From assembly GCF_050320075.1 (NCBI RefSeq), contig NZ_CP190018.1: a DNA stretch of 64,000 nt; one strand, given 5' to 3'. Below the pieces are notes generated by a model. That model had not been told where the DNA came from. It saw only the letters and a list, made by a program, of their open reading frames with translations, and ran no database searches. How positions within the stretch are numbered: the stretch's first letter is position 1; every line of letters starts with the position of its first letter. The DNA is from Escherichia coli. GTDB lineage: Bacteria > Pseudomonadota > Gammaproteobacteria > Enterobacterales > Enterobacteriaceae. A program made the position numbers and the translations under genes. This document shows positions 4,461 through 43,357 of the stretch, piece after piece.

Positions 4461-4502
4461 GCGATTTCCTTTTATCTTTCGACACGTAAAACGAATACCG
4501 GG

Positions 4503-4530
4503 GTTATCGGCCTGAATTGCGCAAAGTTTA
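4503..4530 (-). promoter_or_regulatory. sigma28 (FliA) class III promoter for fliDST
   Basis: Minus strand reads TAAACTTT-N11-GCCGATAA about 45 bp upstream of the fliD start. Confidence 0.5.
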
Positions 4531-4622
4531 CGTTTAATTGTTTTTTTTAATAGCGGGAATAAGGGGCAGAGAAAAGAGTATTTCGGCGACTAACAAAAAA
4601 TGGCTGTTTGTGAAAAAAATTC

Positions 4623-4649
4623 TAAAGGTTGTTTTACGACAGACGATAA
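4623..4649 (+). promoter_or_regulatory. sigma28 (FliA) promoter for fliC
   Basis: TAAAGGTT-N11-GACGATAA about 75 bp upstream of the fliC ATG. Confidence 0.55.
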
Positions 4650-4725
4650 CAGGGTTGACGGCGATTGAGCCGACGGGTGGAAACCCAATACGTAATCAAC
4701 GACTTGCAATATAGGATAACGAATC

Positions 4726-6396
4726 ATGGCACAAGTCATTAATACCAACAGCCTCTCGCTGATCACTCAAAATAATATCAACAAGAACCAGTCTGCGCTG
4801 TCGAGTTCTATCGAGCGTCTGTCTTCTGGCTTGCGTATTAACAGCGCGAAGGATGACGCCGCAGGTCAGGCGATTGCTAACCGTTTTACTTCTAACATTA
4901 AAGGCCTGACTCAGGCTGCACGTAACGCCAACGACGGTATTTCTGTTGCACAGACCACTGAAGGCGCGCTGTCCGAAATCAACAACAACTTACAGCGTAT
5001 TCGTGAACTGACGGTTCAGGCGACGACCGGAACTAACTCCACCTCTGACCTGGACTCCATTCAGGACGAAATCAAATCCCGTCTTGATGAAATTGACCGC
5101 GTATCCGGCCAGACCCAGTTCAACGGCGTGAACGTACTGTCAAAAGATGGCTCGATGAAAATTCAGGTCGGCGCGAACGATGGTGAAACCATCACGATTG
5201 ATCTGAAAAAGATCGACTCTTCTACATTGAAGCTGACCGGTTTTAACGTGAATGGCGAAGGTGAAACAGCCAATACTGCTGCAACACTTAAAGATATGGT
5301 TGGTTTAAAACTCGATAATACGGGGGTCACTACAGCTGGAGTTAATAGATATATTGCTGACAAAGCCGTCGCAAGTAGCACGGATATTTTGAATGCGGTA
5401 GCTGGTGTTGATGGCAGTAAAGTTTCCACGGAGGCAGATGTTGGTTTTGGTGCGGCTGCCCCTGGTACGCCAGTGGAATATACTTATCATAAAGATACTA
5501 ACACATATACGGCTTCTGCTTCAGTTGATGCGACTCAACTGGCGGCATTCCTGAATCCTGAAGCGGGTGGTACCACTGCTGCAACAGTAAGTATTGGCAA
5601 CGGTACAACAGCTCAAGAGCAAAAAGTCATTATTGCTAAAGATGGTTCTTTAACTGCTGCTGATGACGGTGCCGCTCTCTATCTTGATACTAATGGTAAC
5701 TTAAGTAAAACTAACGCAGGCACTGATACTCAAGCTAAACTGTCTGACTTAATGGCAAACAATGCTAAGGCAAAAACAGTCATTACAACAGATAAAGGTA
5801 CATTTACTGCTAATACGACAAACGATGGTTTTGATGGGGTAGATATTTCTGTTGATGCTTCAACGTTTGCTAATGCCGTTAAAAATGAGACTTACACTGC
5901 AACTGTTGGTGTAACTTTACCAGCGACATATACAGTCAATAATGGCACTGCTGCATCAGCGTATTTAGTCGATGGAAAAGTGAGCCAAACTCCTGCCGAG
6001 TATTTTGCTCAAGCTGATGGCACTATTACTAGTGGTGAAAATGCGGCTACCAGTAAAGCTATCTATGTAAGTGCCAATGGTAACTTAACGACTAACACAA
6101 CGAGTGAATCTGAAGCGACTACCAACCCGCTGGCAGCATTGGATGACGCTATCGCGTCCATCGACAAATTCCGTTCATCCCTTGGTGCTATCCAGAACCG
6201 TCTGGATTCCGCGGTCACCAACCTGAACAACACCACTACCAACCTGTCCGAAGCGCAGTCCCGTATTCAGGACGCCGACTATGCGACCGAAGTGTCCAAC
6301 ATGTCGAAAGCGCAGATTATTCAGCAGGCCGGTAACTCCGTGCTGGCAAAAGCTAACCAGGTACCGCAGCAGGTTCTGTCTCTGCTGCAGGGTTAA
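4726..6396 (+). CDS. fliC: flagellin (H antigen), 556 aa with non-K-12 central domain
   Basis: Conserved flagellin N terminus ([12 protein letters not shown]...) and C terminus (...QVLSLLQG); central region differs in length and sequence from the 498-aa K-12 flagellin. Confidence 0.95.
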
Positions 6397-39169: not shown

Positions 39170-40831
39170 ATGATTAACCGTATCCGCGTAGTCACGCTGT
39201 TGGTAATGGTGCTGGGGGTATTCGCACTGTTACAGCTTATTTCCGGCAGTCTGTTTTTTTCTTCCCTTCACCATAGCCAGAAGAGCTTTGTGGTTTCCAA
39301 TCAATTACGGGAACAGCAGGGCGAGCTGACGTCAACCTGGGATTTAATGCTGCAAACGCGCATTAACCTGAGTCGTTCAGCGGTGCGGATGATGATGGAT
39401 TCCTCCAATCAACAAAGTAACGCCAAAGTTGAATTGCTCGATAGCGCCAGGAAAACATTGGCCCAGGCAGCGACGCATTATAAAAAATTCAAAAGCATGG
39501 CACCGTTACCTGAAATGGTCGCTACCAGTCGTAATATTGATGAAAAATATAAAAACTATCACACAGCGTTAACTGAACTGATTGATTATCTTGATTATGG
39601 CAATACTGGAGCTTATTTCGCTCAGCCAACCCAGGGAATGCAAAATGCAATGGGCGAAGCGTTTGCTCAGTACGCCCTCAGCAGTGAAAAAATGTATCGC
39701 GATATCATCACTGACAACGCAGATGATTACCGATTTGCCCAATGGCAACTGGCGGTTATTGCGCTGGTGGTGGTATTGATTCTGCTGGTGGCGTGGTACG
39801 GCATTCGCCGTATGTTGCTTACACCGCTGGCAAAAATTATTGCTCACATTCGCGAAATCGCCAGTGGTAACCTGGCGAATACCCTGACCATTGACGGGCG
39901 CAGTGAAATGGGCGACCTGGCGCAGAGCGTTTCACATATGCAACGCTCTTTGACTGACACCGTCACTCATGTGCGTGAAGGTTCAGATGCCATCTATGCC
40001 GGTACCCGTGAAATTGCGGCAGGCAACACCGATCTTTCCTCCCGTACTGAACAGCAGGCATCTGCGCTGGAAGAAACTGCCGCCAGCATGGAGCAGCTCA
40101 CCGCGACAGTGAAGCAAAACGCCGATAACGCCCGCCAGGCCTCACAACTGGCGCAAAGTGCCTCTGACACTGCCCAGCACGGCGGCAAAGTAGTGGATGG
40201 CGTAGTGAAAACGATGCATGAGATCGCCGATAGTTCGAAGAAAATTGCCGACATTATCAGCGTTATCGATGGTATTGCCTTCCAGACTAATATCCTCGCG
40301 CTGAATGCCGCTGTTGAAGCAGCACGAGCGGGTGAACAAGGCCGTGGTTTTGCCGTGGTGGCGGGCGAAGTGCGTAATCTTGCCAGCCGCAGCGCCCAGG
40401 CGGCAAAAGAGATCAAAGCCCTCATTGAAGACTCCGTCTCGCGCGTTGATACCGGTTCGGTGCTGGTCGAAAGCGCCGGGGAAACAATGAACAATATCGT
40501 CAATGCTGTCACTCGCGTGACTGACATTATGGGCGAGATTGCATCGGCATCGGATGAACAGAGCCGTGGCATCGATCAAGTCGCATTGGCGGTTTCGGAA
40601 ATGGATCGCGTCACGCAACAGAACGCATCGCTGGTGCAGGAATCAGCTGCCGCCGCAGCTGCGCTGGAAGAACAGGCCAGTCGTTTAACGCAAGCGGTTT
40701 CCGCGTTTCGTCTGGCAGCCAGCCCACTCACCAATAAACCGCAAACACCATCCCGTCCTGCCAGTGAGCAACCACCGGCACAGCCACGACTGCGAATTGC
40801 TGAACAAGATCCAAACTGGGAAACATTTTGA
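39170..40831 (+). CDS. tar: methyl-accepting chemotaxis protein II (aspartate/maltose)
   Basis: Recognised as Tar; start at [11 protein letters not shown]; ends in NWETF pentapeptide. Confidence 0.95.
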
Positions 40832-40876
40832 CGAGTATTTACTAACGCGGTCATTGCCGCCTGATGGGGAGCGTTG

Positions 40877-42478
40877 ATGTTTAATCGTATTCGAATTTCG
40901 ACCACGCTGTTTTTAATTTTGATTCTCTGCGGGATCTTGCAGATTGGCAGTAACGGCATGTCTTTTTGGGCATTTCGCGACGATTTGCAACGACTGAATC
41001 AGGTCGAACAGAGCAATCAGCAACGTGCGGCTTTAGCGCAAACTCGGGCGGTAATGTTACAGGCCAGTACCGCGCTGAACAAAGCGGGCACTCTGACGGC
41101 GCTTAGCTATCCGGCGGATGACATTAAAACGTTGATGACGACGGCGCGCGCCAGTCTGACGCAATCCACCACGCTGTTTAAAAGTTTTATGGCGATGACT
41201 GCGGGCAACGAGCACGTCAGGGCGTTGCAAAAAGAGACGGAGAAAAGTTTTGCCCGCTGGCACAACGATCTCGAACATCAGGCGACCTGGCTTGAAAGTA
41301 ATCAACTTTCGGATTTCCTCACTGCGCCGGTGCAGGAATCACAGAATGCGTTTGACGTTAACTTTGAGGCCTGGCAGCTGGAGATCAACCATGTGCTGGA
41401 AGCTGCCAGTGCGCAAAGCCAGCGTAACTATCACATTTCGGCGCTGGTGTTTATCAGCATGATTATTGTTGCAGCGCTCTACATCAGCAGTGCGCTGTGG
41501 TGGACGCGCAAGATGATTGTTCAACCACTGGCCATCATCGGTAGCCATTTTGACAGCATTGCTGCGGGTAATCTGGCGCGTCCGATTGCAGTGTATGGTC
41601 GCAATGAGATCACCGCCATTTTTGCCAGTCTGAAGACCATGCAGCAGGCTTTGCGTGGGACGGTAAGTGATGTGCGTAAGGGAAGCCAGGAGATGCACAT
41701 TGGTATCGCGGAGATTGTCGCAGGCAATAACGATCTCTCAAGTCGTACCGAACAGCAGGCGGCATCGCTGGCACAAACGGCCGCCAGTATGGAGCAATTA
41801 ACCGCCACGGTAGGGCAAAACGCCGATAACGCACGACAGGCGTCGGAACTGGCAAAAAATGCCGCGACAACGGCGCAGGCGGGCGGTGTTCAGGTCAGTA
41901 CCATGACTCACACCATGCAGGAGATCGCCACCAGCTCGCAAAAAATTGGCGACATTATCAGCGTTATCGACGGCATTGCTTTCCAGACCAATATTCTGGC
42001 CCTGAATGCGGCAGTGGAAGCGGCTCGCGCCGGAGAGCAGGGTCGTGGTTTTGCGGTAGTGGCAGGTGAAGTGCGCAATCTTGCCAGCCGTAGCGCCCAG
42101 GCAGCAAAAGAGATCAAAGGGCTGATCGAAGAGTCAGTCAATCGTGTCCAGCAGGGTTCGAAACTGGTGAATAACGCCGCCGCGACCATGACTGATATTG
42201 TCAGTTCGGTGACCCGCGTGAACGACATTATGGGAGAAATTGCTTCGGCCTCGGAAGAACAACGGCGGGGGATTGAGCAGGTTGCGCAGGCTGTCAGCCA
42301 GATGGATCAGGTGACACAGCAGAACGCCTCGCTGGTAGAAGAAGCGGCGGCGGCAACGGAACAACTGGCGAACCAGGCTGACCATCTTTCGTCGCGTGTG
42401 GCGGTATTTACCCTTGAAGAACATGAAGTAGCACGACATGAGTCGGCGCAGTTACATATTGCGCCAGTGGTATCCTGA
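40877..42478 (+). CDS. tap: methyl-accepting chemotaxis protein IV (dipeptide)
   Basis: Recognised as Tap; start at MFNRIRISTTL. Confidence 0.95.
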   Translation: MFNRIRISTTLFLILILCGILQIGSNGMSFWAFRDDLQRLNQVEQSNQQRAALAQTRAVMLQASTALNKAGTLTALSYPADDIKTLMTTARASLTQSTTLFKSFMAMTAGNEHVRALQKETEKSFARWHNDLEHQATWLESNQLSDFLTAPVQESQNAFDVNFEAWQLEINHVLEAASAQSQRNYHISALVFISMIIVAALYISSALWWTRKMIVQPLAIIGSHFDSIAAGNLARPIAVYGRNEITAIFASLKTMQQALRGTVSDVRKGSQEMHIGIAEIVAGNNDLSSRTEQQAASLAQTAASMEQLTATVGQNADNARQASELAKNAATTAQAGGVQVSTMTHTMQEIATSSQKIGDIISVIDGIAFQTNILALNAAVEAARAGEQGRGFAVVAGEVRNLASRSAQAAKEIKGLIEESVNRVQQGSKLVNNAAATMTDIVSSVTRVNDIMGEIASASEEQRRGIEQVAQAVSQMDQVTQQNASLVEEAAAATEQLANQADHLSSRVAVFTLEEHEVARHESAQLHIAPVVS

Positions 42479-42496
42479 AGTGATTGAGAAGGCGCT

Positions 42497-43357
42497 ATGA
42501 CTTCATCTCTGCCCTGTGGGCAAACGTCTTTATTGTTACAGATGACCGAGCGCCTGGCGCTTTCCGACGCGCATTTTCGGCGGATAAGTCAATTGATCTA
42601 TCAACGAGCCGGGATCGTCCTGGCCGACCATAAACGCGACATGGTTTACAACCGACTGGTTCGTCGTTTGCGTTCGCTGGGACTGACGGATTTCGGCCAT
42701 TACCTGAACTTGCTGGAATCTAATCAGCACAGCGGTGAGTGGCAGGCGTTTATCAATTCGCTGACCACGAATCTGACGGCATTTTTCCGTGAGGCGCATC
42801 ATTTTCCTCTGCTCGCGGATCACGCCCGGCGTCGTTCTGGCGAGTATCGCGTATGGAGCGCGGCGGCTTCGACCGGCGAAGAGCCGTACAGCATTGCGAT
42901 GACACTGGCTGACACATTGGGCACCGCGCCCGGACGCTGGAAAGTGTTTGCCAGCGACATTGACACCGAAGTGCTGGAAAAAGCCAGAAGCGGTATTTAT
43001 CGCCATGAAGAGTTGAAAAATCTGACGCCGCAGCAACTGCAGCGGTACTTCATGCGAGGGACGGGACCGCATCAAGGGCTGGTACGCGTGCGTCAGGAAT
43101 TGGCGAATTATGTTGATTTTGCCCCGCTGAATTTACTGGCGAAACAGTACACCGTGCCGGGGCCGTTTGATGCGATCTTCTGTCGTAACGTCATGATCTA
43201 CTTCGATCAAACTACCCAGCAGGAGATTTTGCGCCGCTTTGTTCCGCTCCTTAAACCCGACGGATTGCTGTTTGCGGGTCACTCTGAAAACTTTAGCCAC
43301 CTTGAGCGCCGCTTCACGCTGCGTGGTCAGACGGTGTATGCGCTAAGTAAGGATTAA
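42497..43357 (+). CDS. cheR: chemotaxis methyltransferase CheR
   Basis: 286-aa ORF recognised as CheR. Confidence 0.95.

Follow-up and report, generated by a model that had tools for sequence, protein, structure and literature searches.

The chemoreceptor genes tar and tap of Escherichia coli lie head to tail, and the locus raises the question of whether the DNA similarity between these adjacent paralogues is kept up by exchange between them or follows from what their proteins must conserve. An earlier note on this DNA held that the two genes share a near-identical stretch of ∼230 bp, that this stretch is a substrate for homologous recombination or gene conversion, and that it makes short-read mapping ambiguous. 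Here, the reading favored, with a probability of roughly 0.9, is that the similarity reflects selection at the protein level and is not kept up in E. coli by gene conversion, and that perfect runs within the similar DNA give rise to rare deletion fusions.

The tar-tap locus and the extent of the similarity

The window (the whole stretch of 64,000 nucleotides analyzed) is a 100% match to E. coli strain 746, in which RefSeq annotates tar and tap; the gene names proposed from the sequence were therefore correct. The genes occur in the order tar, tap between cheW and cheR, as in E. coli orthologues, open the gene run tar-tap-cheR-cheB-cheY-cheZ, and share about 98% DNA identity with those of K-12 (98.1%). 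Both proteins have the ordered TarH, HAMP, and MCPsignal architecture of Tar/Tsr-type receptors (residues 1–169, 212–262, and 325–482 in Tar), and PF02203, PF00672, and PF00015 were found above the Pfam cut-offs in Tar, in Tap, and in the two natural fusion proteins described below. Tar (553 residues) terminates in DPNWETF, whereas Tap (533 residues) terminates in IAPVVS and lacks NWETF. The NWETF/NWESF pentapeptide docks CheR and CheB and is missing from low-abundance receptors (PMC3676780), and the two proteins thus fall into the high- and low-abundance classes, respectively. In genes, order, operon context, and domains, including the hairpin-tip domain PF00015, the locus corresponds to the known E. 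coli tandem without any difference of substance, strain 746 being ∼2% removed from most E. coli in this region.

Table 1. Positions in the window of the two genes and of the sequence features discussed in the text
Feature	Coordinates	Strand	Remarks
tar, aspartate/maltose chemoreceptor (MCP II)	39170..40831	+	ORF; RefSeq annotation of strain 746; Pfam
tap, dipeptide chemoreceptor (MCP IV)	40877..42478	+	ORF; RefSeq annotation; Pfam TarH, HAMP, MCPsignal
Whole homologous zone, tar copy	40019..40650	+	Tar residues 284–494: methylation helix 1, hairpin tip, methylation helix 2
Whole homologous zone, tap copy	41720..42351	+	Same alignment, offset 1701
Best-conserved core, tar copy	40229..40438	+	Tar residues 354–423, hairpin tip contacting CheA/CheW
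Best-conserved core, tap copy	41930..42139	+	Offset 1701
Longest perfect run (21 nt), tar copy	40249..40269	+	Crossover interval of the ET474/PEC389 fusion
Longest perfect run (21 nt), tap copy	41950..41970	+	Offset 1701
Second-longest perfect run (18 nt), tar copy	40114..40131	+	Tar residues 315–321; crossover interval of the ETEC4088 fusion
Second-longest perfect run (18 nt), tap copy	41815..41832	+	Offset 1701
Chi site inside tap (GCTGGTGG on the minus strand)	41928..41935	-	15 nt upstream of the tap copy of the 21-nt run

A blastn comparison of the tar and tap genes of the window aligned 651 nt at 73.6% identity (E = 2.5e-110), and a repeat finder detected direct repeats of 300 and 185 nt (77 and 74% identity) at a spacing of exactly 1,701 bp, or 567 codons. 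Over the whole homologous zone, tar and tap are identical at 73.0% of nucleotides, 78.1% of amino acids, and 47.6% of third codon positions; the corresponding values for the core are 81.9, 92.9, and 52.9%, and a second conserved block at 40019–40138 reaches 78% identity. The similarity noted earlier was thus drawn too narrowly. It is genuine and in register, but its description as near-identical does not hold: tar 40200..40440 and tap 41901..42141 differ at 50 of 241 nt (79.3% identity), and although the encoded proteins are ∼90% identical, third positions match at only 52%. The best 60- and 100-nt windows are 92 and 85% identical, and perfect identity extends over at most 21 nt in the window and 24 nt in K-12 and T43. 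No match between tar and tap was returned by megablast, which requires an exact word of 28 nt. The tap coordinates proposed earlier, 41930..42160, fall in the right region but imply offsets of 1720–1730 in place of 1701 and are 20–30 nt out of register. A chance or compositional resemblance is ruled out by the E value, by the common domain architecture, and by the identity of the 241-nt tar stretch to other in-frame positions of tap, which averages 25.6% and does not exceed 32.8%.

The predicted ambiguity in read mapping was not borne out. Reads of 50, 75, 100, and 150 nt would carry minimally 3, 7, 15, and 24 mismatches to the paralogue, so that even a 100-nt read differs at no fewer than 15 positions. 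The stretch is too diverged to mislead aligners or assemblers and is harmless in this respect for both annotation and mapping.

Origin of the similarity

The near-invariance of the encoded protein explains why the core DNA is ∼80% identical. Over the same core columns, tar and the unlinked tsr gene are 79.5% identical in nucleotides, 92.9% in amino acids, and 52.9% at third positions, and across the entire cytoplasmic zone the identity of tar to tsr is 77.1%, compared with 73.0% to tap. The similarity is therefore not special to the tandem pair.

The alternative, that ongoing gene conversion between the adjacent paralogues (concerted evolution) maintains the similarity, would be favored by their tandem direct orientation. 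Against it, third-position identity between tar and tap within E. coli (0.48–0.53) is no higher than that of tar and tsr, and the longest exact run is unremarkable when codons (P = 0.20) or third positions (P = 0.30) are shuffled. Among ten E. coli lineages, minor alleles agreed with the paralogue at 19 of 49 and 15 of 41 informative sites; these were scattered single sites, and the clustering of paralogue-type sites that conversion tracts would produce was not seen in these lineages. Neighbor-joining trees were constructed for E. coli, Enterobacter hormaechei, Leclercia, and Atlantibacter hermannii, for which tar and tap loci had been obtained via homologous proteins and the contigs encoding them. 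With the cytoplasmic domain, whether all positions or third positions only were used, a tar clade was separated from a tap clade across the four genera. The tree from the 210-nt core alone was less clean, with two tap-like genes outside the tap clade, and did not group genes by genome. The third-position, tree, and ten-lineage results therefore argue for protein-level selection and not for gene conversion, which is very unlikely to maintain the similarity and, as an explanation for E. coli, is largely refuted.

Two observations lie on the side of conversion. Among identical amino acids, the share encoded by the same codon is 0.518 in the cytoplasmic zone, compared with 0.381 expected from codon usage (z = 3.9), and 0.554 in the core, compared with 0.384 expected. 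This modest excess implies that synonymous sites are not fully saturated; the level is alike in tar-tsr (0.52) and tar-trg (0.51). In addition, the paralogues of E. hormaechei L012 share a perfect run of 46 nt (P = 0.0035), which is of tar type and marks the only candidate tract, of ∼55 nt, and conversion between tar and tap may have occurred in some lineages other than E. coli. The tap-like gene of this genome also bears a 51-nt deletion at the tip. Conversion events that were very old or very short could likewise have taken place.

In the favored reading, strong selection on the hairpin-tip protein fixes first and second codon positions, and synonymous sites have largely diverged after a duplication older than the separation of the genera Escherichia, Enterobacter, Leclercia, and Atlantibacter. 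Similarity of tar and tap DNA that stems from protein conservation is ordinary and long known, and the stretch can be regarded as a textbook case of paralogue DNA similarity as a by-product of protein constraint, not of conversion.

Tar-Tap fusions in natural isolates

The suggestion that the similar DNA is a substrate for homologous recombination was borne out when the E. coli population was searched for tar-tap chimeras. Here, a probe joining the Tar N-terminal region to the Tap C-terminal region and cheR matched at one place with a span of 1,429 nt, the value predicted for a 1,701-bp deletion, in 3 of 5,426 complete E. coli genomes. These genomes, ETEC4088, ET474, and PEC389, each carry a single ORF of 1,608 nt, named simply “tar” by RefSeq, directly before cheR, and represent two independent events. 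The last tar-type and first tap-type diagnostic sites are 40113 and 40132 in ETEC4088 and 40248 and 40270 in ET474 and PEC389. A single switch point accounts for 253 of the 264 diagnostic sites in one fusion and for 249 in the other; both fusions are in register and in frame and have lost exactly 1,701 bp, as expected of unequal recombination between direct repeats. The crossover intervals coincide with the two longest perfect runs, a coincidence with a chance of ∼0.002 if breakpoints were uniformly placed; one lies inside the stretch first noted and the other 100 nt upstream of it. In wild E. coli, tar-tap fusions have arisen on two or more occasions, and perfect identity of 18–24 nt sufficed for the formation of hybrid receptor genes.

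It might be argued that these genomes are assembly artifacts in which tar and tap collapsed through their common stretch, given the concern over ambiguity in the earlier note and given that ETEC4088 is the only complete genome with its fusion allele. Such a collapse is highly improbable. At 18–24 nt, the common perfect runs do not reach the length of assembler k-mers and fall far short of that of reads, and each junction is clean and preserves the reading frame. Independent projects yielded ET474 (from a frog in China) and PEC389 (from swine in Korea), whose sequences agree at every position over 4,429 nt. Moreover, the two exact fusion proteins were present on public contigs (28 for one, 71 for the other) and in index blocks (58 and 140), and the context was cheW-fusion-cheR in every one of the 24 contigs inspected per protein.

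A probe that discriminates the reciprocal Tap-N::Tar-C hybrid detected it in 0 of 5,426 genomes, and an extra copy of the tar-3′/tap-5′ junction was on this basis excluded as the duplication product.

Route of exchange and predicted function of the hybrids

Given that the direct repeats are spaced by exactly 1,701 bp, or a whole number of codons, perfect runs within them can support in-register exchange or deletion. Such short runs would support these events only rarely, and the product would be one in-frame hybrid gene in which the ligand-binding, transmembrane, and HAMP parts of Tar are joined to the C-terminal part of Tap. The molecular route, RecA-dependent or not, has to be inferred. Mismatch repair penalizes exchange in homeologous DNA. 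Efficient RecA/RecBCD exchange in E. coli is reportedly subject to a minimum of roughly 25 nt, a figure attributed to Shen and Huang in 1986. None of the perfect runs exceeds this minimum, and they are embedded in homeologous DNA of ∼75–80% identity, which would suit a RecA-independent short-homology route at repeats of 18–24 nt, whether by slippage, template switching, or single-strand annealing. The same route is favored by the recovery of the deletion product only and by other deletions in these genes at even shorter repeats, namely a tar deletion in strain 472 (its imperfect repeats lie in a BLAST overlap of 19 nt), in-frame tap deletions, and the UTI89-type deletion with its CAGG junction. 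By contrast, the placement of the crossovers in the two longest runs is equally compatible with either route, the duplication product could be unstable or selected against, and the Chi site close to one tap crossover would suit a RecBCD route, although a role for this site in the crossovers is speculative. On balance, a RecA-independent origin is a serious candidate with somewhat less than an even chance of being correct.

Both natural fusions end in the Tap-type sequence IAPVVS and lack the pentapeptide. The hybrid receptors would be expected to retain aspartate and maltose sensing and to lose dipeptide sensing; having lost the NWETF tether for CheR, they would therefore be predicted to depend on neighboring Tsr for adaptation. 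Laboratory precedents are the tar-tap hybrid transducers of Slocum, Halden, and Parkinson in 1987 (J Bacteriol 169:2938) and of Weerasuriya, Schneider, and Manson in 1998 (J Bacteriol 180:914), the abstract of the former reportedly describing spontaneous K-12 deletions that arose by recombination between homologous C-terminal regions. Like these hybrids, the natural fusions join the Tar N terminus in register to the Tap C terminus within the conserved cytoplasmic region. Unlike them, they come from wild isolates (pig and frog) and dozens of public assemblies, and their breakpoints are resolved to perfect runs of 18 nt and 21–24 nt. Chimeras of closely related chemoreceptors, Tar-Tap among them, are cited as functional in PMC2229510. 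In the searchable literature, to which most subscription journals do not belong, no published natural tar-tap fusion was found.

It is doubtful that the fusion lineages are selected receptor rewirings and not neutral or mildly harmful accidents, and that they provide in addition a natural read-out of minimum homology. Were this so, their persistence on dozens of contigs, in hosts that include pigs and a frog, would mark an ecological niche, and the junctions would report the minimum perfect homology (about 18–24 nt) for exchange in DNA diverged to 75–80% identity. As a practical matter, the hybrids bear the RefSeq label “tar”; chemoreceptor surveys may therefore score fusion strains as tap-negative with a normal Tar, even though this Tar lacks the NWETF tether.

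Loss of tap from phylogroup B2/uropathogenic E. coli is attributed to Lane et al. 2006 and Borziak et al. 2013 in PMC3559539 and PMC12623472. A deletion of this type was present in about 1,100 of 5,425 genomes. Like the fusions, it is a natural, population-level change at the tar-tap locus that abolishes Tap function. Unlike them, the UTI89-type deletion (41004..42377 in window coordinates) is internal to tap, has a 4-nt CAGG junction, and leaves tar intact, and this common deletion is accordingly ruled out as a tar-tap exchange. “Tap” proteins of 506 and 518 residues, considered as possible chimeras, proved to be products of in-frame internal deletions of tap.

Extent and Coding Content of the tar-tap Similarity

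The queried region of the window is a 100% match to Escherichia coli strain 746, for which the RefSeq annotation places tar (methyl-accepting chemotaxis protein II) and tap (protein IV) between cheW and cheR; the order 3' of tap is cheR, cheB, cheY, cheZ, flhB. TarH, HAMP and MCPsignal domains are present in both proteins. The paralogy of the two genes and the conservation of their signalling domain are textbook knowledge, and there is nothing new or unusual in the similarity itself.

An ungapped alignment of the two genes, offset by 1,701 nt (567 codons), extends from tar position ∼40019 to 40650. A repeat finder returned direct repeats at this spacing (300 nt at 77% and 185 nt at 74% identity), and blastn aligned 651 nt at 73.6% identity (E = 2.5e-110). 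Such similarity is real and far above chance: mean identity between tar 40200..40440 and other in-frame tap registers is 26%. An earlier note had described near-identical stretches of ∼230 bp. This wording is too strong, given that tar 40200..40440 and its in-register partner, tap 41901..42141, differ by 50 mismatches (79.3% identity) and that the best-defined core reaches 81.9%, i.e. about 80%. In addition, the position assigned to the tap copy was 20-30 nt off the true register, and the homologous zone actually spans ∼630 nt. Identity peaks at 92% in the best 60-nt window and 85% in the best 100-nt window, the longest perfect runs are 21, 18, 16 and 14 nt, and megablast of tar against tap returned no match between the genes. 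The ambiguity that the same note expected in short-read mapping is not supported, since a 100-nt read placed at the paralogue carries at least 15 mismatches. At the in-register position, the minimum is 3, 7, 15 and 24 mismatches for reads of 50, 75, 100 and 150 nt, respectively; only very short reads approach ambiguity (36 nt, 2 mismatches).

From the Tar methylation sites at residues 295, 302 and 309, we take the second conserved block to be the first methylation helix. The core lies on either side of the hairpin turn of the cytoplasmic signalling domain, where Tar and Tap are 100% identical across ∼55 residues and 93% identical across the core as a whole. [quoted passage not shown]

Coordinates of features in the tar-tap region (positions in the window)
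Feature	Position	Strand	Description
tar	39170..40831	+	RefSeq annotation of matching strain 746
tap	40877..42478	+	RefSeq annotation of matching strain 746
Best-defined core, tar	40229..40438		Tar residues 354-423
Best-defined core, tap	41930..42139		
Second conserved block	40019-40138		Tar residues 284-323; presumed first methylation helix
Chi octamers, tar	39763-39770, 39784-39791	+	
Chi octamer, tap	41928-41935	-	
Direct repeats, tar deletion of strain 472	40329-40347, 40551-40569		Encode EQGRG and EQSRG

Selection and Gene Conversion

Gene conversion between the neighbours, also proposed in the earlier note, is not borne out in E. coli, where the DNA similarity of the core is due to selection. 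Third codon positions of tar and tap match in only 52.9% of core codons. The same columns compared between tar and tsr, a chemoreceptor gene unlinked to tar and on the opposite side of the chromosome in K-12, give 79.5% nucleotide, 92.9% amino acid and, again, 52.9% third-position identity. Across the whole cytoplasmic zone, tar shares 77.1% identity with tsr but only 73.0% with its neighbour tap. A longest perfect run of 21 nt is expected at such identity (shuffling, P = 0.20-0.30). When conversion tracts were sought in ten E. coli lineages, including strain 746, K-12, O157:H7, O166:H15, UTI89 and one divergent strain, paralogue-consensus bases occurred only as scattered singles, with no clustered tract. 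Of the informative sites, 19 of 49 and 15 of 41 had a minor allele equal to the base of the paralogue, which is roughly the yield of transition-biased mutation.

Tandem tar-like and tap-like genes 5' of cheR were also identified, via exact protein matches, in Enterobacter hormaechei, Atlantibacter hermannii (locus L014) and Leclercia. Neighbour-joining trees of the cytoplasmic domain, built from all positions or from third positions only, resolved a tar clade and a tap clade with no pairing by genome. The tree of the 210-nt core alone was less clear-cut: two tap-like genes fell outside the tap clade, and here too nothing grouped by genome. The tar/tap duplication therefore predates these genera and was followed by independent evolution of the two copies.

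Among identical amino acids of the core, identical codons are used at a frequency of 0.554 against 0.384 predicted by codon usage (z = 3.0); the N-terminal half has no such excess (0.397 against 0.422 predicted). Given that tar-tsr (0.52) and tar-trg (0.51) lie at the same level, the excess is a property of the domain rather than of adjacency and reflects incomplete saturation or site-specific codon preference.

A candidate exception was found in E. hormaechei, on a single metagenome contig (L012). Over a run of 46 nt, corresponding to 40373-40418 in E. coli tar, the two genes match perfectly (P = 0.0035, protein profile held fixed), and tar-type bases are clustered at diagnostic sites of the tap-like gene. 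The hairpin tip of the tap-like gene (4501-6051) is shorter by 51 nt (17 codons), a deletion directly 5' of the run; the run may be a short conversion tract in another genus. The Leclercia tap-like gene (metagenome contig L015, 4501-6078) lacks 27 nt near the tip. Citrobacter sp. JGM124 (locus L013, 3962-6051) has a single MCP gene between cheW and cheR; it is tap-like, with an N-terminal domain 54% identical, and no gene is called in the 540 nt before it.

Natural tar-tap Fusion Genes

Recombination between tar and tap does occur in nature. The earlier note had held the pair to be a substrate for homologous recombination and pointed to population data as the place to look for chimeras, which were indeed present there. 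The probe joined 400 nt of Tar-specific sequence (39620-40019) to 400 nt of the tap 3' end and cheR (42350-42749), the halves merging into one match only where the 1,701-bp unit is absent. A one-place match was obtained in only 3 of 5,426 complete E. coli genomes, ETEC4088 (pig, Belgium), ET474 (frog, China) and PEC389 (swine, Korea), each at the predicted span of 1,429 nt. All three contain one 1,608-nt ORF, annotated "tar" and directly 5' of cheR, with the C-terminus of Tap (...IAPVVS). The exact fusion proteins were found on 28 and 71 contigs and are listed in 58 and 140 index blocks; among 24 contigs inspected per fusion, the position was always between cheW and cheR. Assembly collapse was ruled out by this recurrence and by a junction identity of merely 18-24 nt. 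The reciprocal Tap-N::Tar-C hybrid between intact tar and tap, sought with a probe joining only in the hybrid, was found in 0 of 5,426 genomes.

Each fusion gene has a single switch in diagnostic sites, which lies between 40113 and 40132 in ETEC4088. ET474 and PEC389 do not differ at any of the 4,429 nt compared, and their switch lies between 40248 and 40270. The two intervals coincide exactly with the longest perfect runs of the zone, of 18 nt and 21 nt (24 nt for the second in K-12-like backgrounds); with breakpoints placed uniformly, the chance of both falling there is ∼0.002. Outside the interval between the two crossovers, ETEC4088 and ET474 show ordinary polymorphic differences, and at least two independent fusion events are therefore implied.

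The spacing of 567 codons between the repeats keeps the exchange in register and preserves the reading frame. The fusions may have arisen by a RecA-independent short-homology event, consistent with perfect runs at or below the minimum efficient processing segment of ∼25 nt, with deletions as the sole product observed and with the even shorter repeats used by other deletions in tar and tap. Exchange mediated by RecA/RecBCD may also be considered, for which the minus-strand Chi octamer in tap, 15 nt upstream of the tap copy of the 21-nt run, provides no more than a hint.

The hybrids retain the sensing, transmembrane and HAMP parts of Tar with its first methylation helix, and gain the second methylation helix and C-terminus of Tap, at the cost of the CheR-docking NWETF pentapeptide. 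Dipeptide sensing by Tap would also be lost. Hybrid tar-tap transducers were described in 1987 (Slocum), reportedly as spontaneous deletions through recombination between homologous regions, and engineered again in 1998 (Weerasuriya). The hybrids of Slocum 1987 and Weerasuriya 1998 are among the chimeras of closely related chemoreceptors that are cited as functional (PMC2229510). Receptors without NWETF are poorly methylated alone and depend on neighbouring high-abundance receptors (PMC3676780). No description of natural tar-tap fusions was found in the literature searched, coverage of which was incomplete; the fusion lineages and the location of their breakpoints, in the two longest perfect runs, add a little to what is known.

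Other Lesions and Copies of tar and tap

A tap-internal deletion of ∼1,374 bp (41004..42377) is present in ∼1,100 of 5,425 E. coli genomes, e.g. UTI89 and NC101, and leaves a short pseudogene (UTI89 locus L001, 3278-3429). It matches the Tap loss reported in B2/uropathogenic strains (PMC3559539, PMC12623472), an event different from the tar-tap fusion in being internal to tap, with only the microhomology CAGG at its junction. Different in-frame internal deletions occur in tap alleles P0038, P0025, P0058, P0061 and P0063; methylation helix 1 is shorter by 27 aa in P0038 (506 aa, 352 contigs), and P0025 (518 aa) has lost 15 aa from the hairpin tip. An internal stop interrupts tap in JNE112863 and tar in T43. 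These in-frame deletions and stops suggest relaxed selection on tap in several lineages.

In strain 472 (NZ_CP018245.1; L010 1071-2510), a 222-nt in-frame deletion between imperfect direct repeats takes out one arm of the hairpin tip of tar, and H87 (strain 673) appeared the same in the match table. In GCA_907172595.1, which has an ET474-type fusion, the cheR call is split into parts of 210 and 89 aa (L025 4127-4986), suggesting a frameshift or sequencing error. In a few genomes, the tar-tap junction or parts of it occur in extra copies, at up to 4 places per genome and at 2-5 places on records labelled plasmid; these were rejected as Tap-N::Tar-C hybrids, and larger duplications or mislabelled replicons are the probable explanation. 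The 64-kb window contains 26 Chi octamers (GCTGGTGG), 20 of these on the plus strand, where shuffles predict a total of 1.65.
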